18,812 bases of DNA. Source: Nitrospirota bacterium. GTDB lineage: Bacteria > Nitrospirota > UBA9217. Each line of letters begins with the position of its first letter. The first letter of the stretch is position 1. Shown here in pieces: positions 1,109 to 18,812 of this stretch. The stretch is from positions 1 through 18,812 of the forward strand of contig CAVUHW010000003.1 in NCBI GenBank assembly GCA_963741205.1, in the 5' to 3' direction. The translations under genes and the position numbers were made by a program. The notes under the pieces were generated by a model. That model did not search any database. It was not told the DNA's origin and was given only the letters and a program-made list of their open reading frames with translations.

Positions 1109-1179
1109 GAAGAAAGATAAAGCTCACCGGCGGCAATAGAGTAGATCGAAATTGCCGTCGGTGGAGCTTCTAGTCGGAC
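1109..1179 (-). mobile_element. Degenerate integron attC site
   Basis: - strand: R'' GTCCGAC, 5-nt spacer, L'' GCTCCACC, stem-loop, L' GGTGAGC, 6-nt spacer, decayed R' TTTCTTC. The opposite strand folds with one extrahelical G (1163/1164). Confidence 0.6.
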
Positions 1180-1897
1180 CTATCTCCGGTTAAACCGCCA
1201 CTGGTGCCGAAGTTCTGTTCACTACCGAGTAAGCGATATATCGATGCGCCAATGAGAGCACCAACAATTGGTGCCACCCAGAAAAGCCAAAGCTGTGAAA
1301 TCGCCCAATTGCCAACAAAGACGGCAACGGCCGTACTTCGCGCAGGATTCACTGACGTGTTTGTAACCGGTATGCTAATCAGATGGATGAGAGTCAGGCA
1401 CAAGCCAATTGCAATCGGCGCTAAACCTTGTGGCGCCCGTTTGTCAGTGGCGCCAAGAATGACAATGAGAAACATCATGGTCATGACCACTTCAGTTACG
1501 AGGGCAGCCAGTAAACTATACCCCCCGGTGAATGGGCACCGTAGCCGTTTGAAGCAAAACCTGCGGATAGCTCAAAGCCCGCCTTTCCACTGGCGATGAG
1601 ATACAGGACACCGCCTGCAACAACTCCCCCCAAGACCTGCGCAACGATGTAGGGCAGCAGTTCTCTGGCTGGAAAACGACCGCCGGCCCAGAGACCAAAC
1701 GATACTGCCGGATTTAGATGACAGCCTGATATGTGGCCGATGGCAAAGGCCATCGTGAGCACAGTCAGTCCAAATGCCAGTGCAACACCAAGAAGCCCGA
1801 TTCCAACATTTGGAAACGCAGCAGCTAAAACAGCACTACCGCACCCACCAAGAACCAGCCAGAAGGTTCCAATAAACTCTGCGCCATACTTGTTCAT
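1170..1897 (-). CDS. aqpZ: Aquaporin Z; one-base deletion in the C6 run at 1521-1526 splits it into two ORFs
   Basis: [33 protein letters not shown] and NTSVNPARS (two NPA boxes). Adding one G restores [27 protein letters not shown]. Confidence 0.95.
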
Positions 1898-6153: not shown

Positions 6154-6466
6154 TTAGTCGGCCAGGATGTCGGCTTCCCCGGTCGCCGAAATCGTCTTCC
6201 ACAGCGTTACCTCTTGGAGAGAAATCAGATAGGGTTGCTGGACAGCAATTTGATCCGCCAGCAACCCGGCGCGGCCGGTGAAGTCGGAAGCCAGGAGTTC
6301 GTTATAGGTAAGTTGGGTCGTAAGAATCGGATCTGTGAACGGCAAAAAAGTACAGTAAGATCTGTTCCCGCATCCATGTTCTGGGTCATGACGTCTACCA
6401 CGCGCTTGTCGCTGTCGGCTACCGCAGGCGAAATGGTCAAGCTGAGCGTGAGGATCGCGATTAACA
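6154..6466 (-). pseudogene. N-terminal fragment of a secreted endonuclease/exonuclease/phosphatase (EEP) family protein
   Basis: Signal-like LLIAILTLSLTISPAVA, then VMTQNMDAGTDL...DFTGRAGLLADQIAVQQPYLISLQEV. No start codon, frameshift at about 6345, and it ends next to the att arm. Confidence 0.6.
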
Positions 6467-6489
6467 GCTACGCGTCGACCTATCCCCAG

Positions 6490-7065
6490 TTAGTGTACCA
6501 AGTGGAGAGTTGTATTTTGGGCTTGAATTGCCTCTGGAGCCGGGCGTTCCACCAACAATCTGGCGCGCTCAAGAACCTCGGGTGATACGGCAGCCATATT
6601 GTCCATTACACTCGACATCTGAACATCTGGGGATGTATAGATGCGGCTGAAACCGGACTGCAGTTGCAAGTAGAACTCGGGGCGCTCTTCCGCCGGAATC
6701 CTCAGTAGCTCGGCGAAGGCATCGAGTGTCTCGCCGCGGCCCTGGGCGATATCACGGGCCAGATTGTCCATGTTGGCCGCCATAAATTCATTTACCTGAT
6801 CACTGCTTGCAAACTTCTTTGGCTTCTGGCATTCAGCCGAACCAGCAGTAATGCCAACAGTAGGTACGACAGACAACGGCGGGAAGAAATTTAAGAATGC
6901 TTGGACCGCCTGGAGCAGAGCTGAATCATTGGCGTTGTCCTTGAACAGCATCGTCCCGAGACCGCATCCCGTGTTGTTCTGTGCTGTTCCTGCGGACGCC
7001 ACACTATCAAGCATGATCGAAACTACTGCAGCTGTCAAAAAAACCGCGACGATAAGCTTTTTCAT
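6490..7065 (-). CDS. DUF3015-family exported protein
   Basis: Signal peptide, TGCGLG, GITAGSAEC, FMAANMDNLARDIAQGRGETLDAFAELL. RBS AAGGAGG before ATG 7065. Confidence 0.85.
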   Translation of the reverse strand: MKKLIVAVFLTAAVVSIMLDSVASAGTAQNNTGCGLGTMLFKDNANDSALLQAVQAFLNFFPPLSVVPTVGITAGSAECQKPKKFASSDQVNEFMAANMDNLARDIAQGRGETLDAFAELLRIPAEERPEFYLQLQSGFSRIYTSPDVQMSSVMDNMAAVSPEVLERARLLVERPAPEAIQAQNTTLHLVH

Positions 7066-7124
7066 ATACGCCTCCTTTGCATTGGATAACGATAAAGACA
7101 TTGAAGCAAGACTGACCGTAGTTG

Positions 7125-7192
7125 TAAAGCCATGCTTCCCGGACCGTGTGCGCATGTGAACCCATCTCACAAGGGGTTTGGCTTTATCGGGG
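7125..7192 (-). ncRNA. Possible decayed c-di-GMP-I (GEMM) riboswitch upstream of DUF3015
   Basis: CGATAAAGCCAAACCCCTT-GTGA-GATGGG resembles the GEMM 5' half with a GNRA loop. The expected GACGNAAAGC and P3 are poorly preserved. Confidence 0.25.
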
Positions 7193-7525
7193 TCTAACAA
7201 TTGACGGATACTGAGAAATTGATCAGTAAAATATAACACAAATCATAAGCGGGCATCGATAATTAATGAAGGTATTTTTAGGGGATTGCACAAAGTGGTA
7301 ATATGTAGCAGATGAAACTTTGATTATTGCGAAGAATTGAAACTCCAACATTCCAGGAAGACTCACGCGCTGAATGTGAAGATAGACGATATCGATACAC
7401 CGGGTTGATACTAATCCCCGGTCTGCGGTGTTACAACCGCGTTCCTCCATAATTTATTTAGTTGATATTATAGAGCATTTTTGCAATTTTTATGATTTCA
7501 TGGCAGTTTCTGCCACATTATTTCC

Positions 7526-7557
7526 AAAAAAAAGACCTATTCAATCGTGAATAGGCC
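7526..7557 (-). terminator. Intrinsic terminator downstream of tRNA fragment copy 2
   Basis: Same hairpin and T8 as 6008-6039. Confidence 0.8.
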
Positions 7558-7574
7558 TTAACTAATTGATTTTA

Positions 7575-7622
7575 TGGTGCCCCTGGGGTGACTCGAACAC
7601 CCGGCACGCGGTTTAGGAAACC
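7575..7622 (-). tRNA. 3' half of tRNA-Arg(CCT), att core (copy 2)
   Basis: 48 bp identical to 6057-6104; 5' half absent. Confidence 0.85.
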
Positions 7623-7821
7623 TGATCCTCTCACACAAATCATTGATTTCTCATGCTGGAATCTCGTGGGAACTGATGGAATTTATCGTTTTTTAGCGTA
7701 AAGATGGCAGAAAAGTGGCAGAAACATTTGTTACAATATTCTGCAGTGACGATATCTTTTTAGCAACCCATGAACGCATCATTCGAGCAGCTGGCGAAAT
7801 AACTTAACCCTTAACTTAAAT

Positions 7822-9152
7822 CAGTAGTGTCCGGTTATCGTTTTTCTAATGTGTGATAACTCACTGTCATACAAAGATAAAAAAGCCTATATGCAACTTT
7901 TCGATTTGAACTCAATTTATCCAGAATCATCTTATAATCCACCTCATCACTGCATGAGGGGGGACCAGGATGAATTCCGGGAAAACGATCTTCGCTCAAC
8001 TGATCGAGCATCTACCACGATACGAGTTCAATCAATGCGTCCTTCGTTACCAAGGCAATCACAAGGTCAGGAGTTTCTCGTGTACGGATCAGTTTCTCTG
8101 CATGGCCTTTGCTCAACTGACCTATCGAGAAAGCCTACGCGACATCATAACGTGCCTCAATTCCCATCGACCAAAGCTCTATCACATGGGATTCCGAGGG
8201 AAGATCGCAAAGTCCACGCTAGCAGACGCCAACGAGCTTCGGGACTTCCGCATTTATCAGGACTTCGGCTATATACTCATCGATATCGCCAGCAAACTCT
8301 ACCGGAACGAGGAGCTTGGCCTCGATCTGAAGCTCGCGGTCTATGCGTTGGACTCAACGGTTATCGATCTCTGCTTGTCCACATTCCCGTGGGCGACGTT
8401 TCGAAAAAAGAAAGCAGCCGTCAAGATTCACACTTTGCTCAACGTGCAGGGATCAATCCCGACCTTTATTTTCGTGACTCCCGGCAGCGTTCACGACGTC
8501 AATATGATGGATGCCGTTCCATTCGAAGCCGATTCGGTCTATACGATGGACCGCGCCTATCTCGATTTCGAGCGGCTCTATCATATCAATCAGCTTTCGG
8601 CGTTCTTCGTTATTCGAAGCAAACACAACACCAGATTGCGCCGCATCTATTCCGCATCAGTGGACAAAACCATCGGCGTACAAGCCGATCAGACAGTTCT
8701 GCTCGTCGGCTACAAATCGCGTATGGCCTATCCCGATCCTTTGCGCCGGGTGCGTTATCACGATGCCGAACGAGACAAGCGTCTGGTGTTTCTAACGAAC
8801 AACTTCTTACTCCCAGCCAAAACGGTCGCCGATATTTATCGATCCCGATGGCAGGTCGAGCTGTTCTTCAAATGGATCAAGCAGCATCTTCGCATCAAGT
8901 CGTTCTTTGGAACATCACCCAATGCGGTCAAGACTCAAATCTGGACTGCGGTGAGTGTTTATCTGCTCGTGGCGATTGTCAAGAAGCGATTAAACCTTCC
9001 CGGCAGTCTCCATACGATTCTACAGATTTTGGAGGTCAACCTTTTCGAGAAAATACCCATTTCTCAGCTGGTTAACGAAACAATCAATCACGAAAACGAA
9101 CATCGTGATGATAACCAATTGAATCTATTTACGTAACAACCGGACAGGACTG
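7822..9152 (+). mobile_element. Complete IS4-family insertion sequence, 1331 bp
   Basis: IRL CAGTAGTGTCCGGTT versus IRR reverse complement CAGTCCTGTCCGGTT (13/15 identical). 9-bp target duplication AACTTAAAT at 7813-7821 and 9153-9161. Confidence 0.95.
7970..9136 (+). CDS. IS4-family DDE transposase (DUF4372 N-terminus)
   Basis: MNSGKTIFAQL...FAQLTYRESLRDI, ALDSTVI, MDRAY, and YRSRWQVELFFKWIKQHL (YREK motif). Confidence 0.96.
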   Translation: MNSGKTIFAQLIEHLPRYEFNQCVLRYQGNHKVRSFSCTDQFLCMAFAQLTYRESLRDIITCLNSHRPKLYHMGFRGKIAKSTLADANELRDFRIYQDFGYILIDIASKLYRNEELGLDLKLAVYALDSTVIDLCLSTFPWATFRKKKAAVKIHTLLNVQGSIPTFIFVTPGSVHDVNMMDAVPFEADSVYTMDRAYLDFERLYHINQLSAFFVIRSKHNTRLRRIYSASVDKTIGVQADQTVLLVGYKSRMAYPDPLRRVRYHDAERDKRLVFLTNNFLLPAKTVADIYRSRWQVELFFKWIKQHLRIKSFFGTSPNAVKTQIWTAVSVYLLVAIVKKRLNLPGSLHTILQILEVNLFEKIPISQLVNETINHENEHRDDNQLNLFT

Positions 9153-9421
9153 AACTTAAATCAGAAATGATCAGAAATAGCTGATTGAATCTGCAACCTG
9201 CACCTACTACTTTCACGTCCGGCACTACGATTGGCAAAGTGTGAAATACCAGTTTTGAAGTCAACAGAAGTATTCACTTTTTGTTTAATTTGCTCGACTT
9301 TATTGAACTGTGCATTGGAACAGCAAGCTCAGCTTTGCGAAGCAGCCGGCTGCAGGCTGGGCGAGCTGACTGCATAGAAAGGCACCATGGCACAACCATT
9401 CCAGAATTGGAATGCATTATT

Positions 9422-10168
9422 TCATGGTGCCTTGAAAATTTCCCCAACAGGACATCTCCACGGAATGAACATCGGGACCATGTTTTGATAGTGACGATAG
9501 CTCTCGCCAAATTCAGCAACAAGATCCTTCTCCTCAAGGCAAGAACCGAGAACGATCCAGAATGTCCAGAGCAAATTGAAGAGTAAGCGGTCTAAACTCA
9601 AGGAGGGAGTTGCCCAGATGAAAACCAACATGAAGAAATACAGTGGGTGACGAACCCAGAGATAGGGGCCTCGAACAACCAAGTGCGGCGCCTGCTGCTT
9701 GTTATTCAAGTGCGTTAAAATGGAGAGCCGGCCAAAGGGATCAAATTCTCCAAGCGTCCGAACGCCCCACACAAAACCGGCAACGGCAAAGAGGAAGGCG
9801 GCACGAAACGGTATCCGCAAAAGCCCCTGGACCTCAAAGAGAGTCGTGTGCGATGGCTTCCATAGAAGCACCACGGCTGTGAGGACTGTGCCGGATGCGA
9901 TTGCATACGTTGCTGAGTAGTAGTGGGCGGGTATAATGGACGAAAACCAGGTACGAAATGACGATCTTATCACCCCGCTATGCTGAAGGAAGAACACTGC
10001 GGACAGGAACCCGTCCCATAGCAACGCCTGCGGTTCCGAGATGTTCAAGTGGATAACGGTAAAAGGCCCGGCGATCAGGAAAGCACCGAAGATTAGCAAC
10101 GAGCCACCGCCAGAAAGAGTGGCTAGGACGATTACCAAATAAGCTGCAAATCGATTCGCTGACTGCAT
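9422..10168 (-). CDS. Membrane methyltransferase, isoprenylcysteine carboxyl MT superfamily (MddA/Nurim-like)
   Basis: FFLQHSG, GPYLWVRHPLY, WATP, LEEKDLVAEFGESYRHYQNMVPMFIP; multiple TM helices. Confidence 0.85.
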   Translation of the reverse strand: MQSANRFAAYLVIVLATLSGGGSLLIFGAFLIAGPFTVIHLNISEPQALLWDGFLSAVFFLQHSGVIRSSFRTWFSSIIPAHYYSATYAIASGTVLTAVVLLWKPSHTTLFEVQGLLRIPFRAAFLFAVAGFVWGVRTLGEFDPFGRLSILTHLNNKQQAPHLVVRGPYLWVRHPLYFFMLVFIWATPSLSLDRLLFNLLWTFWIVLGSCLEEKDLVAEFGESYRHYQNMVPMFIPWRCPVGEIFKAP

Positions 10169-10300
10169 CAGTCTGTCCTTACGTGGCCCAATGTGGTAAT
10201 GGGGGCAGCTTTCACGGCCCCTCTCGACCGTGGATGAAGGCCGTCCTTCTGCATTAGCTGGTTCGGCTTGTCCTGATACCAGTCGTAGGTGAGACTGCTG

Positions 10301-10837
10301 TTAGTTCGTCTTTCCCTGACTGCATGACACAATAGTTCCTGATCGGTACTCAAGCACTCGAATCACACTGGTTACTTCAAGCGATATAGTACAAGGGAGT
10401 TGAAACGACGGAATAACATTCATGATGCCATCAACTTCCATACCAGGGATAATCTTACACGTAGCAGATTCTATACAGTCCTCGGCGGTCTTTACAGCAG
10501 CACCACAGCCCAGTACTATAACAGCGTCGAACCCCGATGCGCGTTTTTTTAGGTCTTGCCGGCGTCCTGATGTCCACATGCAAACAACGAAGTGATGAGG
10601 CAGCCTGCTGTAAAATACTTCTGCTTTGATGCCGGCATGCTCCAGGCGGGATTTCAATTCCTTAATATACGATTCATATGCTTCGGTTTTTAGAAATCTG
10701 CTAAATAGCTGTATGAAAGGTTTCTTCTCTCTCACAGAGAGACTGGCAGCCGGGCAGAATCTGCAAGGTACAATCAGAGCAGAATGAACATTAGAGATGT
10801 CAGCAGATATATCACGATCTTTAAGAGAGAATGGCAT
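10301..10837 (-). CDS. Cys-rich hypothetical protein, resembling the N-terminal domain of MetV/MTHFR-C-like proteins
   Basis: IVPCRFCPAAS...VVCM...DAVIVLGCGAA. RBS GGAGG before ATG 10837. Confidence 0.6.
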   Translation of the reverse strand: MPFSLKDRDISADISNVHSALIVPCRFCPAASLSVREKKPFIQLFSRFLKTEAYESYIKELKSRLEHAGIKAEVFYSRLPHHFVVCMWTSGRRQDLKKRASGFDAVIVLGCGAAVKTAEDCIESATCKIIPGMEVDGIMNVIPSFQLPCTISLEVTSVIRVLEYRSGTIVSCSQGKTN

Positions 10838-11010
10838 TTGCAATACCTCCTCATACCGCCCGTATTAGGTGGCGGTTGCGCGTTCTTTCTCCTTAATCAT
10901 TACTGCCCGGGCATAACCACCTCCGTTTGTTTCGAATCACGCTTCTTTCTGATCCTATAGACGAAACGAAGAAGGGTGCAACGTGCCGGATGTTCATATA
11001 CCTGCTCTAT

Positions 11011-11583
11011 TCAGCTGCAACCGCAACCCGATTCTGTTGCTGGCCTCGGTGCAGCGCCCGGGACGGCAGCCCTACATCCCGTCTCCGTCGCGGACACAGC
11101 GGCTAGCACTGGCTCTTTTCCCAATTCTGCCAGGACGATGTTCGCCACTTTTCGCGCCGTCTCTCTGCGTTCTGTTTCCGGGACGGAATCAATATCAAAG
11201 AGGTCGGTATACTTCCCGTAAAGAGAAAGGGCATCGAACTGGACCAGGTTCTCTTTCCCGACCAGATTTTCAAGGATCCTGCCGTGACACCTGAGAAAAC
11301 ATCCGTCTATGAGCACGATTTTCTCCGCCTTCTTGATCCACTGCGCCAATGCCGATTGGGGTACGGAGAAAAGTTCCCCGTGGCAACCCCGTCGGTACGG
11401 CTCCTCCTTGGCTACGAGGTTTGCGGCAAGACGCGCGATCTCTCCTCGTATGCACGCCCCTTCGCAGGACAGGACCGGAATTTTCCCTTCTTTAAGATTT
11501 CTGGATCCGGCTATTTCTCCCGTTGGACAGCTCTTGCTGGTTCTTGAAACCTCAAGGGTGAAACTATTGATTAACTCTTTCAT
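11011..11583 (-). CDS. DGC-domain putative zinc-binding protein
   Basis: VLSCEGACIRGEIARLAA...GCH...VLIDGCFLRCH; C-terminal GCGCS; RBS GAGGAGG. Confidence 0.85.
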   Translation of the reverse strand: MKELINSFTLEVSRTSKSCPTGEIAGSRNLKEGKIPVLSCEGACIRGEIARLAANLVAKEEPYRRGCHGELFSVPQSALAQWIKKAEKIVLIDGCFLRCHGRILENLVGKENLVQFDALSLYGKYTDLFDIDSVPETERRETARKVANIVLAELGKEPVLAAVSATETGCRAAVPGAAPRPATESGCGCS

Positions 11584-11800
11584 TTTTCTCCTCCTCAGGC
11601 CCGGTATCCTTTGTTGTTGGCGCACAACAGGATTGGCTTTTCATTTTCTTGATCATGCCGTTCATTATGGTTGAGCAGTCAGGAAAGTCTCCTTCACCTG
11701 AGCAGCATTTTCCCATCATATCCAACATCCCGGACCTCATTGGACCCGAACCTTCCGATTTCGTCTTGTCTTCCTTCTTGTTTGATTCTTCAGCAGTCAT
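11564..11800 (-). CDS. Small Cys/Met-rich hypothetical protein (78 aa)
   Basis: RBS AAGGAGG; MLDMMGKCC...PDCSTIMNGM...SCC; overlaps the start of the DGC gene. Confidence 0.7.
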   Translation of the reverse strand: MTAEESNKKEDKTKSEGSGPMRSGMLDMMGKCCSGEGDFPDCSTIMNGMIKKMKSQSCCAPTTKDTGPEEEKNERVNQ

Positions 11801-11834
11801 TTCAGTTATCCTCCTTGCGATTTTTAGCCGACTA

Positions 11835-12095
11835 TTATGTGCGCCCCGCAATGCCTTTTTTTTTCTCTTCATACTCCTGCTTATTAATCTCTCCCTGATC
11901 ATTCTTTCTGTCCAGAATATCGGAAGGACGATCGGATGTACTTTCGCCGTGGCTGCCCGATCTGCCGAAACCCGGGCCGCACATCATCGAACCCGCATGT
12001 CCTCTCATCATGAAGATGCAAAGAACCATCATTGCGATCATAATGATCGGAAATATCCACCAATATCCGTAGCCAAAAGCTAAACACGGAAACAT
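11835..12095 (-). CDS. Single-TM SHOCT-domain protein
   Basis: WWIFPIIMIAMMVLCIFMM TM segment; DILDRKNDQGEINKQEYEEKKK SHOCT-like tail; RBS AGGAGGTG. Confidence 0.78.
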   Translation of the reverse strand: MFPCLAFGYGYWWIFPIIMIAMMVLCIFMMRGHAGSMMCGPGFGRSGSHGESTSDRPSDILDRKNDQGEINKQEYEEKKKGIAGRT

Positions 12096-12117
12096 ATGCC
12101 TCACCTCCTTTCGACCA

Positions 12118-12148
12118 TATAGACGAAGGGAGGGAGAAAAAAGATACA
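12118..12148 (-). promoter_or_regulatory. Putative ECF-type promoter
   Basis: TGTATC-N17-CGTCTA on the - strand, directly after the sigma gene. The 10-mer TTCGTCTATA recurs at 10956-10965. Confidence 0.4.
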
Positions 12149-12150
12149 TC

Positions 12151-12756
12151 TTATTTTTTGAGGAATTTTAGAGGAGTGGTCTTGCGGTCGCAGGAGAGTT
12201 CGTTTCGTTCATCGCGGTAGAAATTGCATTTCGCTTCAAGTGCCTTTCTGAGCTTCATCCTCGCGCGGTGCAGCCTGATCTTTACCGTGTCCAGAGATAT
12301 GCCGATGACTTCGGCAATTTCCGAATTCGTCAAACCTTCGAATTCACTCAAAACGAGCACGGTGCTGTAGTCGTCAGGAAGGCTGTCAACAACGCCCCGA
12401 ATACAATCATTCATGTCCTTCCGGATCAGCAGTGTATCGAGGAAAGGCGTGTTGTCGATGGGCCCGGCATCTTCATCTCCCGGAACATCTTTTTCTTCCG
12501 TGGGTCGCACTGATCGCTTCGAGGAGGGCCTGCGGAGATGATCCATTGCGGTGTTTGTTGCAATCCGGTAGATCCATGTGGACAGACTGGATTCACCACG
12601 AAAGCTGTCAAGCGAGTGATCTATTTTTACGAACGTTTCCTGAGCCGCGTCTTCTGCCTCTAACTCGCCAATCAGCCTTGTGAGATATCTGACGATCTTC
12701 GGATAATACTCATCGTATATTGTAGAAAATTCCTGTTTACTAAAAGACATGGTCAT
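12151..12756 (-). CDS. ECF sigma-70 factor with a two-Cys C-terminal extension
   Basis: AEDAAQETF, SLSTWIYRIATNTAMDHLR, EIAEVIGISLDTVKIRLHRARMKL, then CNFYRDERNELSCDRK. The true start may be ATG 12750. Confidence 0.93.
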   Translation of the reverse strand: MTMSFSKQEFSTIYDEYYPKIVRYLTRLIGELEAEDAAQETFVKIDHSLDSFRGESSLSTWIYRIATNTAMDHLRRPSSKRSVRPTEEKDVPGDEDAGPIDNTPFLDTLLIRKDMNDCIRGVVDSLPDDYSTVLVLSEFEGLTNSEIAEVIGISLDTVKIRLHRARMKLRKALEAKCNFYRDERNELSCDRKTTPLKFLKK

Positions 12757-13045
12757 CCTCTATTTATGCATTTGCAATATCATAACGCTTTGCTTTGTTT
12801 TTCGCCAGTGGGTATTGTCTAAAAGTTGATGATCGCGGCTCTGGGCATGCCGTGCGTGCTGCCAAACGATTCAATAGGTCTTCTGCGCTGAGATTGCGGG
12901 ACAGCTCGGTCGTCTTCCTGAGGAAGTTTTCAAGTATCTCCCCCGCTTCGATGAAGAGGACTTCGAGTAGCGTAATCCGGCAGCGTTCAAATTGCCGGGC
13001 AGAGGGGAGTTGCGAGGCAGGTTCATCAGATCGTCCGGGCCGGCA

Positions 13046-13069
13046 AGGGCGGCCCAAAATGGCCGCCCT
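13046..13069 (-). terminator. GC-rich hairpin after the oxidoreductase operon
   Basis: AGGGCGGCC-6 nt-GGCCGCCCT; no U-tract. Confidence 0.4.
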
Positions 13070-13093
13070 CACAGACACGGGAAAGGTTAACTC

Positions 13094-15685
13094 TTAATGC
13101 CCCGCCTTCAACTCCGCGGGAGGAAGCTTCTCCACTTTCACCTCGGGATGCATCTCCCGGTGTTTGTCGCCCGTGTACGCATACCGAAGGGTCTCCTTGA
13201 AGAACTCGAAGTGCTTCGCGTTGTCAAACATGACGTCGCCGAACTTGTCCCCGGGCTTTGCCGGAGCGACGGATGCGACGGTGTCGTACCAGCCCTGCGA
13301 GCCGCCGATCGGGTCCGCGGAGACCGGGATCACATAGTTCGGGTTCACCCCTTCGGCCTTCCACCAGATGTTCTTCAGGTCCGGCTCCTCCACACCGCCC
13401 CACATCGGCATGGGAGCGTCCTTGTCAGCCATGGCGACCCTGCCGAATTTCATCCCCAGGGTGTTGGAAACCGCCACGACGCGGGGGTGGATTCCCTCGG
13501 TGACCTTCGCGTAGGTCACCATATATCCCACGGGGGTCGTAATCCTGATCAGGTCTCCGTCCTTGATCCCGAGCTTTTCGGCGGTATCGGGATTGAGCCA
13601 GGCGGGATTCTTGTGCACGATCTCATTCATCCATTTCAGATTGGCCGTCCTGCTCTGCACATGGACGTTCCACTTGAAGGTGGTCAGGATCATCTGGTCG
13701 TCCTTGAGTTTTGAAGAGCCGTTCTTCTCCCAGTGCCACGGGTGCGCTTTGAACGTCGGAAGCGGGCTGAACCCGTATTTCTCGTAATTCGAAACATAGA
13801 TGTTGATCTTCCCGTCCGGCGTGCCGAAACCCTTGCGCTTCTTGCCGCCCACGGTTACCTTACCGTTCGGGTCTTCCTTCATGTAAAGGCCGTACTCCGG
13901 CTTGATCAGTTTGCCGTCCTTGCCCATGATCTTCCCGGTCGCGGGATCGAGGGTGCCGTATACGGGCCAGACGCCGTTCTTCTTGAGAAAGTCGTAGCCG
14001 CCCGCTTCCTTGAGGCCGGGAATGTTCTCGAACTGTCTGCGGAGATAATCCTCGCCGTCCTTGAACTCCCAGTACTGCCGCATGCCCTTCTTGCCGTCAG
14101 GGTCCACTTTGTGGATGATCATCTTGAGGATTTCCCTGAACTCGATCGCCTCTCCGAGGGGCTTCACGACAGGCTGCCTGATGCCGACCCACGGCCACAG
14201 GCTCGACGGCATGCTCTCGGGATCGTGCCGTTCGAGGTAGCTGCAGTCCGGCAGGACGAGGTCCATCAGCACGGTGGTCTCGTTCATCTGGTTCGAGAAG
14301 GTAACGCTGAAGGGGATGAGCTTTTCGTCCAGCAGCACTTCCCGCCAGTAGCTCGCGGCAGGGTTGGTGAACGCCTCGCAGGACATGTAGTTGAAATACA
14401 TCCCGATCTTCTGCTTTCCCTCCTTGATCCAGAAAGGCGTCAAGTGGCTCACCTTGTGGGCGCCAGGGGATAATCGGGCGGCGTGGAAAGGTAGCTCGGC
14501 TCCTTGGCCTTCGGGGGCGTGGGCTGGGGCTGGTCATAGCCCATGCCTCTCGGCAGGCAGTAGCCGCCCTTTACCTCGATGTTTCCCGTGATGATGGGAA
14601 GGAGCATCGTGCACCGCTCGTTGTAGGAGCCGTACAGGTGCTTGCACGGCCCCCGGTAGGTGTAGGTCGTCGCCGGCCGGACGCTTCCGAACTCGATGGC
14701 GATCCTCCTGATGTCCTTTGCCGGGACCCCGGAATATTTCTCCGCCATCTCGGGAGTGAACTGCTTCAAATGCTCTTCGAGCTTGTCCGCGGGATAGTTC
14801 GTCCAGGTGTTGATGAAGTCCCTGTCCGCAAGCCCTTCCTGCATGATGACATTAGCCATGGCGAGGGCCACGATGCCGTCCGTGCCCGGGAAGAGCGGGA
14901 GCCACTCGTCGCTCTTCGCGGCGGTATTGGAGAGCCGCACGTCAAAGGTGACGAGCTTCGCCTTTCCGTCCACGAGCGCCGTCCATGATCCGCTGCGAGT
15001 AGGGGTTCATGAAGTACCCGGCCTCGAGGATGTTGCTCCCGAAGTTGAGGATGTACTTGCTGTTCTCAAAGTCAGGGGTCTCGATGTCCGGCCCCCACGT
15101 GGGCTCCATGCCGATCTTCTTGGAAGCTTCGCAGGTGGATGTGTGGTTTACGATCGTGTTGGAGCCGAGGGTCGCCATGAACCGTTCGGCCGCGCCCCCG
15201 GAGCGGTTCCTGCCCCACTTCATCATGATCTCATTCGGATGCCCGCTGTCCTCGATCGCAGTGATCTTTGCGGCCACTTCTGCGATCGCCTCGTCCCAGG
15301 AGACCCGCTTCCACTTCCCGCTTCCCCGCGGCCCGGTCCTTTTCAGGGGATAGAGTATCCTGTCCGGATCGTAGATATGCCCGATGCCCGAATTGCCTTT
15401 TGCGCAGAGCCTTCCGCGCGTGGACACATGCTTGTCGTTACCTTCGAGCTTCTTCACCCTCCCGTTCTTGACAAAGGCGAGGCCACCGTCCTCGATGTTG
15501 CAAACGAGGCAGGTGTAGGGAACAATCTTGTCCCATTCCTCGCCGCTCACCTTGTCGTCCTTCACATGCACGCCCCGTCCGCCGAGTTCGGGTTCTCCCG
15601 CCTCGGCGAAATTGCTCATCCCGCCGGCGGCAACTGCGCCGGCCGCCATCCCCAGCTTCATAAAACTTCTTCGTGTGATATCCAT
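13094..15685 (-). CDS. DMSO-reductase-family Mo/W-bisPGD catalytic subunit (Psr/Phs/Arr/Arx-like), Tat-exported; indels at about 14460 and 14980
   Basis: TRRSFMK signal, CLVCNIED...GRLCAKG, RILYPLKR, NHTSTCE, PGTDG, DLVLPDCSYLER, and C-terminal WLNPDTAEKLGIKDGD. The three ORFs join by single-base corrections. Confidence 0.92.
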
Positions 15686-15697
15686 GGCTAGCGCCTC

Positions 15698-16452
15698 CTA
15701 TAGATATTGGGTGAGAATGCCCTTCTCGAAGTCCTGGGGATCCACCTGCCTGTTGCCCCTGATCGAGTCTATCTGGTGGCCTTCCGCGCCGATGTAGTAC
15801 ACTAGGCCGTCAGCGCACAGCTTTTTCGTCGGGTTCGAGGCGATGAGCTTTGAAACCACGCTGTCCGGGTCCGAAAGATCTCCGAAAACCCTCGCCCTCG
15901 GGATGCAGGTCTGGACGCAGGCCGGGACAAGCCCTTTTTCCACCCGATGGACGCAGAAAGTGCATTTCTCGGGAAATCCGGTGATGGGGTTCACGAAGAT
16001 CGCCTCAACCGGGCAGGCGGATATGACGAGGTCAGCCTCCGCCTTGATCTGGGCCGGCGTCTTCCCCTGTAATTTCTTGTAGTCGAAGACGACGATGCCG
16101 TCCTCCCTCCTGGAGAAGCTTCCGAGTCCCGCGCCCTGAGAGGCCTCGGCGCAGTTTCCGCAGTGGTTGCAGATCCACTGGAAGAAATACCGCTTCGCGT
16201 GGGGATACTTGCCCTTCTCGTAGGTCCTGATGTGGGTCCGCCACACGCCGAGGGGCACCTCGTTTTCCGCCTTGCAGCCGACGGTGCAGGCATGGCACCC
16301 GATGCATCTCCTCACGTCCATCACCATCGCCCAGCGTGGTTTTTTCGGCGTCTCGCCTGGACCGCGCCGGCGGAAGCGACAAGCGCGGCCCCCGCTGCCG
16401 CGGATAGTGTGAGGAATTCCTTCCTCGTCAGCTCTTTTTTGTCTTCACTCAT
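15698..16452 (-). CDS. PsrB/NrfC/TtrB-like Fe-S subunit with a Tat-like leader, 12 motif Cys; frameshift at about 16354
   Basis: MSEDKKELTRKEFLTLSAAAGAA joins to ETPKKPRWAMVMDVRRCIGCHACTVGC; also KCTFC...PACVQTC...FGDL. RBS AAGGAGG. Confidence 0.9.
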
Positions 16453-16511
16453 GGTTTTCCTCCTTCTCGGTCTGGAAGTCCGTTGAGCACGTCCTTCGCC
16501 AGGCTGTTCGC

Positions 16512-17146
16512 TCATCTTCCATGTAAGGTGCCGAGATGTTCTTTCTCTGTTTCCAGGAACCGTACGGTCAGGGAACCCAGCGTCTTGTAAAAGGGATGAA
16601 AGGCCAGTCTCTCAAGATCCCGCAGAAAAGCGAATGCCCACGACTGATATGGCTTTGAAAAAACTCCCTCTGTAATCCGAACCATTTCGCGGCCTCTTTT
16701 TCGTCCCCGTTCCTCCGCGCATCCCCCTCCTTCCCGGCCAGGTACCCCATGAATTCGAGCTCCATGCCGATATGGTCCGGCAGCATGCGGCTTTCCTCCT
16801 TGACCACAAGTCCGCAGCGCCGGTAAAATTCTTCCACCTCCCAGGAGGGTTTCTGGTTCAGCATGCCGTGCAGACGAACGGACTCGTAGGGAGGAATGCC
16901 GCCCGGCACGATGAACAACGCCGCGTATTCTTCGGCAAGATCGTTCAGCAGGATGTCTTGAGGTGTGTCGGGCAGCGCTCGGCCCAGGTCTATGCCAAGT
17001 TCCTGGAGCGCGTCCGCGGCCGCTTCGCTTTTCAATATGGCGAGGAACTCCGTTGTTACCTCTTTCAGGTAGGCCGCGGCGAGGAGATGGTAAACGCCGC
17101 TTCTGCCTTTTGTTATGCCTGAACTTTCCACTTTCTTTTCAAGCAT
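16512..17146 (-). CDS. TorD/DmsD-family molybdoenzyme chaperone; frameshift at about 16641
   Basis: EYAALF...PPYESV...PDHIGMELEFM. The corrected tail reads HISRWAFAFLRDLERLAFHPFYKTLGSLTVRFLETE. Confidence 0.9.
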
Positions 17147-17511
17147 GGTTCCTCCTGAAGTTTACAAATCAGGAGCCCGTCCTTTCCGCCCATAATAATA
17201 CTTTGGGGCAGAACCTGGGCAGTTATTAGCTAGAAGGAATAAAGAAGGACAATAAAATAAAGGCTATCACCGGGCACATGGTTGTCAAGTGAGATGCTGG
17301 GATGCGAGGTTATATTGAAATGGCAATTGGCGGCACGTCGACATGAGCGTGCAGAAAGGGTCGCTTTTTTTATCCCCCGATCTGCGACATCGAAGGAGTT
17401 GGCAGGATGGACTGAGGAACCGCCCTCCAAAGCACGCGGGTCGCTGAACAAAATCGCTGAAGGCTTTATTCTGATCCATCGATAAATTCGATGATGTGAT
17501 TTTCATAAAAT

Positions 17512-18587
17512 CTATCCCAGCTTCCCGAAGGGACAGACCGGGTACCTGCACACGTCGCATTTCATACACAGACCCCCATGGCCGAGAGCTCAACCTCTTT
17601 CCGTCCGATTTTCTCATTGGCAAGAACACGGGGTAGGATCAGATCGAAGATCGTGGTTTTCGCGTACATGCCGCAGGCGGGGATGCCGATTATCGGAATG
17701 GAATCGAGATAGGCGATAAGGAACATGGCTCCGGCAGAACGGCAGAGCCATAAGTATATCCGCAGCGCCGAGTTCCCTGATCGCGAACCGCGTTACGTCA
17801 TCGGGATCAACGGACATTCCTCCCGTGGTGATCAACAGATCAGCCCCGGCATTCAACAATTCCCGGAGCCTGTCTACGATGAAAGCCTTATCGTCCGGCG
17901 CGAAGTAGACCCCGCCAGCTCCCCACCGACTTCTTCTATTTTTTTCGTAATGACCGGTGCGAATGCGTCCTTGATCCTGCCGTGATAGACTTCATTCCCG
18001 GTTATAACGACGCCCACACGCGGTTTGCGAATCTCCCTCACCGCAATGATACCGGCCTGACGCGAGTGACGAGCAGTTTCCCCGATTCGAACAGCCTGGT
18101 CAACCACATCCTTCTTTACTACCAGAGGTATTGCCCTGGTGCCCGCGACTGTCCGGCCTTTTTTCACGACGGTATTGTCATGGAGTGTTGCGCACATGAC
18201 CTCGCCGAGCATATTGAACTCAAGGAGGGCCTCCCGGTCTATCTTGAGCAGTCCGTCCCGCTCGGCGACGATGTTGATCTTCCCCTCCTTCGGCTCGCCC
18301 TTGATCGCTACGCCATCGCCTAGGAGCGCCCTGGCGAGAGCGTATGCTGCGTCGTTTTCGTGCATTTCGTCATCAGCGACCTGAAGCACGAAGAGGTGTT
18401 CCTTGCCGAGCCGCTGAAGGTGACACAGGTCTTCTTCTTTGATGATATGCCCTTTTTTGAACGCACGACCTTTGAACTCTCCGGGACGTATCTCCGTAAT
18501 GTCGTGAGCGAGTACTGTCCCCACGGCCTGGCTGACGGGTATTGCCTTCATGGTGGAACCATGGTTTTCATGCGCGTCATCACACAT
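17512..18587 (-). CDS. MoeA-like molybdopterin-binding protein with a C-terminal Cys cluster; four apparent one-base deletions (about 17912, 17755, 17732, 17590)
   Basis: AVGTVLAHDITEI, TGNEV, TTGGMSVDPDDVT, restored YGSAVLPGAMF...GIPACG and GHGGLCMKCDVCRYPVCPFGK. Confidence 0.88.
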
Positions 18588-18810
18588 GGGACCCTCCCTT
18601 GAATATCGTCCTGAAACGTTCATCAACGAACTCTTGAATGCCTTTTTCCAACGCTTCGTATTTCTTCAAAAACTCGCGAGCGTCATTGGTGAGAATTGCA
18701 CCGCCGCCGTTCTTGCCCCCGGTCTGCCGCTCCACTAGCTTGACGCCCAGCCGGTCCTCCATCGCTTTTATATGGCTCCATGCCTTGCGAAAGGAGATAT
18801 CGACTTCCTG
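18580..18810 (-). CDS. modE: ModE-family winged-helix regulator, HTH only, 5'-truncated by the window edge
   Basis: ISFRKAWSHIKAMEDRLGVKLVERQTGGKNGGGAILT; stops with no Mop/TOBE domain. Confidence 0.85.
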   Translation of the reverse strand, partial: QEVDISFRKAWSHIKAMEDRLGVKLVERQTGGKNGGGAILTNDAREFLKKYEALEKGIQEFVDERFRTIFKGGSHV

Positions 18811-18812
18811 CG

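Follow-up and report, generated by a model that had tools for sequence, protein, structure and literature searches.

The arsenic enzymes ArxAB and ArrAB combine a periplasmic, twin-arginine translocation (TAT)-exported, and Cys-ligated catalytic subunit A with a ferredoxin-type subunit B and the chaperone TorD. PsrABC from Thermus and PhsABC share the Cys ligand and have an NrfD/PsrC anchor encoded together with A and B. In the available part of one report, PsrA, PhsA, SrrA, and archaeal SreA are described as phylogenetically indistinguishable (PMC10100899), and phylogeny alone therefore cannot name the substrate of an enzyme from this group. The accessible portions of three further reports (PMC5908839, PMC6683785, PMC6549141) describe trios of a binding protein, a histidine kinase, and a sigma-54 regulator for Aio, Arx, and Arr and for no other enzyme. 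Calorimetric titration has been carried out on the binding proteins AioX, ArxX, and ArrX (PMC5908839). Here, we analyze the whole of contig C3 (18,812 bp, the window) from G000, a metagenome-assembled genome (MAG) of a Nitrospirota bacterium (4.27 Mb in 50 contigs; completeness 84%, contamination 4.9%). The window carries a molybdenum operon for an enzyme with subunits A and B (module 1) followed by a gene set led by an extracytoplasmic function (ECF) sigma factor (module 2), all on the minus strand and read from position 18812 downward. Our preferred reading, to which we assign a probability of roughly 0.45, is that two independent modules are neighbors on accessory DNA and that module 1 is a working A-B enzyme operon. 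Subunit A is placed in a widespread, unnamed clade of uncharacterized enzymes with a predicted Cys ligand, for which an arsenic-type oxyanion is a tentative first choice of substrate. The features of module 1 are as follows.

13094..15685, minus strand: subunit A, predicted TAT-exported catalytic subunit with a Mo/W-bis(pyranopterin guanine dinucleotide) (bisPGD) site, about 863 residues, in three frames (14942-15685, 14449-14973, and 13094-14452)
15698..16327, minus strand: subunit B, ferredoxin-type Fe-S protein (Fer4_11, 71 bits) with 12 conserved Cys for three clusters and without a signal peptide
16568..17146, minus strand: TorD/NarJ-family maturation chaperone (PF02613, 96.7 bits)
17521..18626, minus strand: MoCF_biosynth protein, molybdopterin-binding and MoeA-like (PF00994), in pieces 17874-18626 and 17614-17859
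18580..18812, minus strand: C-terminal ModE/LysR-type helix-turn-helix (HTH) of an FmdE + zinc-ribbon + HTH protein (TIGR00637, 64.6 bits), truncated by the contig end
13035..13080, minus strand: GC-rich hairpin directly past the stop codon of A, without a U tract (-34.1 kcal/mol, z -3.3)

Domains were called by Pfam and NCBIfam profile searches of the open reading frames (ORFs) of the window. An earlier note on this DNA had described one co-oriented run from a modE-HTH gene through to the ECF module, a hairpin after A, and a Mo operon richer in GC than its neighbor. The gene run is borne out by the ORFs and their profile matches, the hairpin is present with the stability given above, and the step in GC is real (0.56-0.62 in the Mo operon and 0.46-0.52 in the ECF part). 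The label of the first gene holds for its HTH, which matches TIGR00637, and fails for a stand-alone ModE: the window holds the end of a gene for an FmdE + zinc-ribbon + HTH fusion protein, whose intact 346-residue paralog on contig C6 has FmdE, zf-dskA_traR, and HTH_1 domains. The pair formed by the FmdE-HTH and MoCF genes occurs four times in G000, beside other Mo/W enzymes, and is present in all congeners. One further region of G000, C5:56433-61043, encodes another PhsA-like enzyme (285 bits) with its B subunit and is followed by a further FmdE-HTH/MoCF pair that continues at C6:2-1019; C5 and C6 are probably neighbors, with the pair spanning their ends.

The three pieces of A together contain PF04879 (Molybdop_Fe4S4), PF00384 (Molybdopterin), and PF01568 (Molydop_binding), the domain set of the DMSO reductase (MopB) superfamily. 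A twin-arginine signal was found on A (TAT_signal match; TIGR01409 at 18 bits with a cut-off of 16.7), while B begins at its first Cys motif without a signal of its own, a combination that also characterizes this superfamily. Module 1 (13094-18812, minus strand) is probably a working operon that encodes a periplasmic A-B enzyme, in which A carries a twin-arginine signal, a predicted Cys-ligated Mo/W-bisPGD site, and a putative Fe-S site near the N-terminus. Lacking a signal, the three-cluster subunit B would be co-exported with A, TorD would mature A, and the FmdE-HTH and MoCF-binding proteins are the usual companions of Mo/W enzymes in this lineage. A partner connecting B with the quinone pool is not encoded in the window, and the NrfD or c554/NapC proteins of relatives suggest a periplasmic cytochrome c for this role.

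Intact orthologs of A (858-866 residues, 78-80% identity) were found in groundwater MAGs assigned to Nitrospirota and "Deltaproteobacteria", and proteobacterial orthologs are 60-63% identical. A scan of 1.84 billion representatives returned 13,053 matches, the nearest of which is 54% identical, and at least 120 clusters (formed at 90% identity) have at least 60% identity to the ortholog used as query. The family occurs in groundwater and soil bacteria, and the sources label it in generic terms only. No NCBIfam equivalog cut-off was reached by any of 60 proteins (one intact ortholog and 59 representatives); PhsA (NF012032) was always the top model among them, and the intact ortholog scored 337 bits against the cut-off of 694. 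The three pieces of A from the window scored 143, 96, and 92 bits on PhsA, 65, 66, and 40 bits on ArrA (NF041714, cut-off 1600), and 45, 25, and 40 bits on TtrA (NF011567, cut-off 1750). The closest solved structures were Thermus polysulfide reductase (2VPW, 176 bits) and ArrA (155 bits).

A phylogeny of A, which the earlier note had proposed as a check, was computed from 70 rows by a quick IQ-TREE run (LG+G4) with support from the SH-like approximate likelihood ratio test (SH-aLRT) only. Subunit A of the window falls in an eight-row clade (SH-aLRT 96) inside an unnamed radiation of 53 rows (97). This radiation is separate from the Proteus PhsA group (95), from the ArrA-like group (100), and from Proteus TtrA, which forms a long branch, and A is thus outside all three reference groups. 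The PhsA and TtrA references come from a Proteus record and are both above their curated cut-offs; with 1155-1334 bits on the ArrA model, the "ArrA-like" references stay below its cut-off of 1600. The tree includes no named PsrA, SrrA, SreA, AnrA, or ArxA and cannot place a true PsrA or SrrA. In profile score and in clade, A differs from the ArrA-like, PhsA, and TtrA references.

The sequence motifs of the family agree with those given in the earlier note. The Mo-ligand loop of the family is H-T-S-x-C-E (NHTSTCE in the window), and the aligned segment is K-W/Y-G-R-N/D/E-R (KWGRNR in the window, given earlier as WGRNR). At this position the ArrA-like references have RGRY and an Arx-type paralog has GRGWG; (R/K)GRY is the segment characteristic of ArrA and GRGWG that of ArxA, as in the earlier note. 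Subunit A of the window also differs from ArxA in its gene order, TorD-B-A, and in its separate clade, with no named ArxA among the references. The N-terminal Fe-S motif is C-x2-C-x3-D in eight of eight family rows (window 15490-15520, residues ~59-66 of A), with Asp in place of the third Cys; this Asp is also present in representatives P0001, P0002, and P0005. The four-Cys motif (C-x2-C-x3-C ... C) of the MopB complex iron-sulfur molybdoenzymes, PsrABC and PhsABC included, is thus altered in A. A sister clade (L020:6029-8446; P0001, P0002, P0004) lacks the Mo-ligand Cys, and two of its rows also lack the Fe-S Cys. The sister-clade gene of L020 has its own B and NrfD genes and adjoins a gene of the A family. 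By analogy, these proteins may be cofactor-less subunits such as QrcB or ActB.

The best NCBIfam model for B was TtrB (135 bits, cut-off 416), which relates B to TtrBCA; the B-C-A order of the NrfD-type relatives matches the gene order ttrBCA. The B subunits of the cytochrome-linked subclade (window, L011, L015, L020) have lost one Cys group and retain 12 Cys for three clusters, whereas PsrABC and PhsABC have four. The B subunits of the NrfD-linked relatives L014 and L024 retain 16 Cys.

According to the earlier note, the window holds neither an NrfD/PsrC-type anchor nor a cytochrome gene, and the enzyme was called anchorless on this basis. The first statement agrees with profile scans, in which no ORF of the window matched an NrfD or cytochrome family; the sole CxxCH motif of the window lies within a ferredoxin motif of B. 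An NrfD/PsrC gene encoded with A and B, as in PsrABC, is likewise missing from the window, which ends 2.5 kb upstream of the gene for B, so that the absence of an anchor is not demonstrable for the genome G000. The second statement fails as a trait of the family. Among 19 related loci examined for partners, 13 have enough upstream DNA and the other six are too short. An NrfD gene lies between B and A in 8 of the 13 assessable loci, as in PsrABC and PhsABC, and a c554-type cytochrome, with or without NapC/NirT, lies upstream of B-A in the remaining five of 13. A second copy of the operon on contig C32 of G000 (see below) has directly upstream of it an 896-residue multidomain multiheme cytochrome c (C32:9080-11770), three unknown genes, a ferredoxin, and a second TorD. 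In the 84% of the genome that G000 represents, no c554, NapC, or close NrfD homolog was found; its only NrfD match, on C30, is 25% identical. By analogy with these relatives, the enzyme of the window would probably exchange electrons with a periplasmic cytochrome c.

The substrate class is suggested by the proteobacterial relatives. Azoarcus sp. KH32C, a cultured bacterium, encodes on plasmid pAZKH an A ortholog (WP_015451713.1) that is 60.7% identical to A. The order of genes at this locus is arsR-arsC-arsD-arsA-ACR3; a divergent set for a sigma-54 regulator, a histidine kinase, and a PhnD-like binding protein; B-NrfD-A-TorD; three hypothetical genes; and a ferredoxin. Because only one further carrier came from 400 Pseudomonadota drawn at random, 400 genomes were sampled from the order that holds the MAG carrier G745, which gave nine further carriers. 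These nine, KH32C, L024, L026, and L029 make up 13 assessable proteobacterial loci; L025 is too short. In 13 of 13, a trio resembling AioXSR and ArxXSR (the XSR trio) is divergent to B-NrfD-A-TorD. ACR3 and ArsC are both encoded within 14 kb in three of the 13, and ars or arx genes adjoin the A-family cluster in five of the 13, KH32C included. In two of the genomes, G726 and G1090, the cluster is directly followed by a second XSR set with an Arx-type gene, and the copy from G1090 has the GRGWG segment. The X protein of KH32C shares 51% identity with the second X copies of G726 and G1090, those beside their arx-type genes. Within the family A cluster of L022 there is a paralog that scores 435 bits on the ArrA model, has GRGWG, and groups with the ArrA-like references; a similar paralog was detected in the cluster of L021 by tblastn only. 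Five genes are always found 3' of TorD in the proteobacterial clusters (KH32C L098:12578-15711), encoding a DUF309 protein, a His_biosynth-like protein, a 156-residue protein, a 368-residue ferredoxin, and a 132-residue protein.

With the XSR trio in 13 of 13 loci and the ars or arx neighbors in 5 of 13, an arsenic-type (As or Sb) oxyanion becomes the leading guess for the substrate class, one that we hold tentatively on sequence context. The relatives resemble Arx and Arr in their divergent trio of PhnD-like protein, histidine kinase, and sigma-54 regulator, as far as the available text of the reports on those systems goes (PMC5908839, PMC6683785), and in their ars gene neighborhood. The order B-(NrfD)-A-TorD differs from arxB2ABCD as given in the accessible part of one of these (PMC6683785). 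Literature searches listed no paper on the proteobacterial B-NrfD-A-TorD cluster with its XSR trio, and the family's own XSR-like trio together with its ars or arx neighbors in Proteobacteria is an observation new to this analysis. It is possible, although doubtful at present, that the A family represents an unrecognized respiratory As/Sb oxyanion oxidoreductase beside Aio and Arr/Arx, with the window holding a cytochrome-coupled and anchor-free Nitrospirota version. Two established identities were considered and rejected. The antimonite oxidase NaoABC is described, in the part of the source available, as NapA-like with a Rieske subunit (PMC11521347), and hence is not of the A family. A canonical arx cluster has a different gene order in the available portions of two reports (PMC6683785, PMC6549141).

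Several observations weigh against the arsenic-type assignment. Neither the window nor L014, L016, L019, or L028 has the XSR trio, and in this the window differs from the XSR-regulated Aio, Arx, and Arr systems. Its subclade has Crp/Fnr or other regulators instead, with ArsR in L020, and a rhodanese gene after A in L015. With the trio missing from the subclade of the window, the link to arsenic is drawn from relatives that are only 60-63% identical. The compared genomes are also related to one another and not independent, and the counts overstate the support. The evidence on the substrate is all indirect, and part of it (PhsA as the top profile, 2VPW as the closest structure, and the rhodanese of L015) points to sulfur.

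These last observations lead to a Psr/Phs-type sulfur reductase, acting on polysulfide, thiosulfate, or tetrathionate with quinol electrons delivered through cytochromes or NrfD. PhsA was the top NCBIfam model for all three pieces of A as well as for the intact ortholog, TtrB was the top model for B, and the relatives are named "thiosulfate/polysulfide reductase chain A" in their sources; the inseparability of PsrA, PhsA, and SrrA in phylogenies (in the available part of PMC10100899) also leaves room for such an enzyme. The scores, however, are about half of the PhsA cut-off, the clade stands apart from PhsA in the tree, the rhodanese gene follows A in only 1 of 29 loci, the source names are automatic annotations, and the XSR trio with the ars and arx neighbors points elsewhere. 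We consider the sulfur reductase an unlikely though serious alternative; sulfur compounds as the substrate class are doubtful to a like degree, and some other class of substrate is also rather improbable. The earlier note had proposed an uncharacterized enzyme for S, Se, As, or Sb oxyanions. The clade is indeed uncharacterized, and among these substrates the comparative context points to metalloid oxyanions of arsenic type. If these enzymes act on As or Sb oxyanions, gene-based surveys limited to aioA, arxA, and arrA would overlook some of the metalloid cycling that takes place in aquifers and paddy soils. The existence of a cultured carrier, Azoarcus sp. KH32C, makes the substrate question directly testable.

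Module 2 lies downstream of the hairpin and is composed of the following genes.

12151..12756, minus strand: ECF-type sigma factor (Sigma70_r2 and r4_2; TIGR02937 at 109 bits, cut-off 42.9)
11835..12149, minus strand: 104-residue small membrane protein with a SHOCT-like tail (weak SHOCT match)
11564..11902, minus strand: 112-residue Cys-rich protein (ORF; 36%-identical homolog at the same place in G1365)
11011..11625, minus strand: DGC-domain protein (PF08859, 52 bits)
10301..10843, minus strand: orf180, of no family (no Pfam or NCBIfam match)
9422..10168, minus strand: MddA-like membrane methyltransferase of ICMT/PEMT type (NF045656 at 123 bits, cut-off 270)

The first gene has regions 2 and 4 of an ECF sigma factor and exceeds the TIGR02937 cut-off. 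The gene for the 104-residue protein is the conserved partner of the sigma factor and adjoins it in G1299, G1365, G1340, and L074. Homologs of the DGC protein (55-78% identity) occur in six other Nitrospirota genomes, and homologs of orf180 (40-55% identity) in 32 metagenome loci, where methyltransferase genes recur adjoining orf180. The last gene, present in four copies in G000, matches model positions 42-238 of 238 of MddA and shares its membrane ICMT/PEMT-type fold; the score of 123 bits against 270 makes it a relative and not an equivalog. Elsewhere the module has as neighbors a TPMT/TehB-type methyltransferase (G1340), ChrA (G1481) with a multicopper oxidase, and multiheme cytochromes. 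Module 2 (9422-12756) would be a self-standing ECF sigma stress unit with a core of ECF, 104-residue, Cys-rich, and DGC proteins, extended by orf180 and the methyltransferase; a role in stress or detoxification is plausible.

The earlier note had put forward the two halves as a candidate integrated system, with the enzyme possibly coupled to the handling of its toxic product. In full, this reading has an anchorless enzyme make a toxic product such as sulfide, selenide, or arsenite, which the ECF module and the methyltransferase would sense and detoxify. Co-occurrence across genomes, which the earlier note had suggested as the way to find out, was examined, and the two halves do not co-occur. 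Homologs of the ECF, 104-residue, 112-residue, DGC, orf180, MddA-like, MoCF, and ModE proteins (E up to 1e-5) were found in 0 of 29 related A loci. None of A, B, or TorD lies near orf180 in the 32 metagenome loci (0/32), and orf180 was found in none of nine other genomes with A homologs (G023, G025, G030, G034, and G041-G045), of which G023 and G030 hold distant A homologs only (39-44% identity). The core ECF-104-(112)-DGC recurs in G1299, with an ECF protein 92% identical, and in G1365 and G1340; family A is absent within ~10 kb on either side of the module in these three loci (0/3). On the side of a joint system, the two modules are adjacent and co-oriented in both of the diverged copies, C3 and C32, and the TPMT/TehB-type methyltransferase, the ChrA gene, and the methyltransferases next to orf180 described above would suit a detoxifying role. 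In the congener G006, moreover, the ECF-DGC module lies ~9 kb from a different Mo-enzyme cluster (A 31-35% identical), and the genes between them encode ArsP-type permeases, ArsR, an ACR3/SBF transporter, CDF-type cation efflux, and thioredoxin-like proteins. A looser link, through residence on the same island, is conceivable from this arrangement. Apart from the counts, a joint system is opposed by the strong hairpin and the gap of 337 bp between A and the ECF gene, by a GC difference of ~0.1 between the parts, and by the orthologs, which are not anchorless. The integrated system is unsupported, and we consider it highly improbable. Modules 1 and 2 are, by these comparisons, independent neighbors, with no support for a mechanistic tie.

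Subunit A is interrupted by two 1-bp indels, near 14978 and 14460. Aligned to TorD of L011, the TorD of the window occupies two frames, with a slip near the C-terminus, and the MoCF protein, relative to its intact 399-residue paralog on C6, changes frame once near residue 240 and meets an in-frame stop at 17614. These breaks could be read as those of a decaying, nonfunctional remnant whose cytochrome or anchor genes are gone, in keeping with a 53-bp deletion in the A gene of C32 and with the c554, NapC, and close NrfD homologs not found in G000. The second copy of window 6159-18812 is at C32:14132-26482 of the same MAG and is 90-99% identical; the identity is 90% across the Mo operon, while orf180, the MddA-like gene, and the insertion sequence (IS) reach 98-99%. 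The breaks in the A gene of C32 are at other positions than those of C3 and consist of one inserted base, one 2-bp deletion, and the 53-bp deletion, and the ratio of nonsynonymous to synonymous substitutions (dN/dS) between the two A genes is 0.073 (dN 0.017, dS 0.23; 842 codons). For a genome-wide check, 400 kb of sequence from G002, a sister species with a complete genome, supplied 139 ORFs of at least 300 residues, with orthologs accepted from 60% identity. Of these, 71 have an ortholog in G000, and 30 of the 71 are split over frames, two of the 30 being repeat or paralog cases. Because conserved genes are split alike (30/71), dN/dS is 0.073, and the indels differ between the copies, the frame breaks in A, TorD, and MoCF are assembly errors, a property of the assembly G000 and not of the operon. 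What counts against this conclusion is that the judgment on the indels is an indirect one, as no public sequencing run contained over 0.08 of the sampled words.

The remnant is thus rejected on dN/dS and the genome-wide splits, and is left with very little probability; in the window the breaks each involve an indel of one base, their positions differ between the copies, and the MAG is only 84% complete. Treating the gene for A as broken is unnecessary, and frameshifts in G000 should not be taken as pseudogenes in general. The aquaporin-type MIP gene of the window (1170-1897) is likewise split, into 1496-1897 and 1170-1490. The hairpin after A is retained in the C32 copy with compensating changes (-31.1 kcal/mol); a terminator scan did not call the hairpin at 13035-13080. 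The C32 block lacks window 7315-7824, a segment with one tRNA-Arg fragment, and is either a paralog or a strain variant of C3.

In the preferred reading of two independent modules, both lie on accessory DNA, and the remaining features of the window bear on this point.

7575..7622, minus strand: 3' 48 nt of tRNA-Arg(CCT) with downstream flank, an att-like repeat, with all 48 aligned nt identical in the intact tRNA gene of C34
6057..6104, minus strand: second 3' 48-nt fragment of tRNA-Arg(CCT) with downstream flank, 98-100% identical to DNA of five congeners
7817..9162, plus strand: IS element with a DDE_Tnp_1 + DUF4372 transposase at 7970-9136, multicopy in the genus

Rfam (E up to 0.1) and ARAGORN searches of the window detected no intact RNA or tRNA gene, and no integrase was found in it. 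Close A orthologs are absent from all 14 congeners (0/14) and orf180 from 40 relatives (0/40), and the MddA-like gene has a weak match only, in 1 of the 14 congeners. Accessory DNA of island origin is supported by the two tRNA-Arg 3' fragments and the IS; the tRNA-Arg island of the earlier note stands in this form, with fragments in place of an intact tRNA. Between A and the ECF gene, a stretch of 90 bp (12876-12965), which has no notable fold on either strand, recurs in at least seven places in four congeners with 85-90% identity and may be a repeat or belong to a small conserved ORF.

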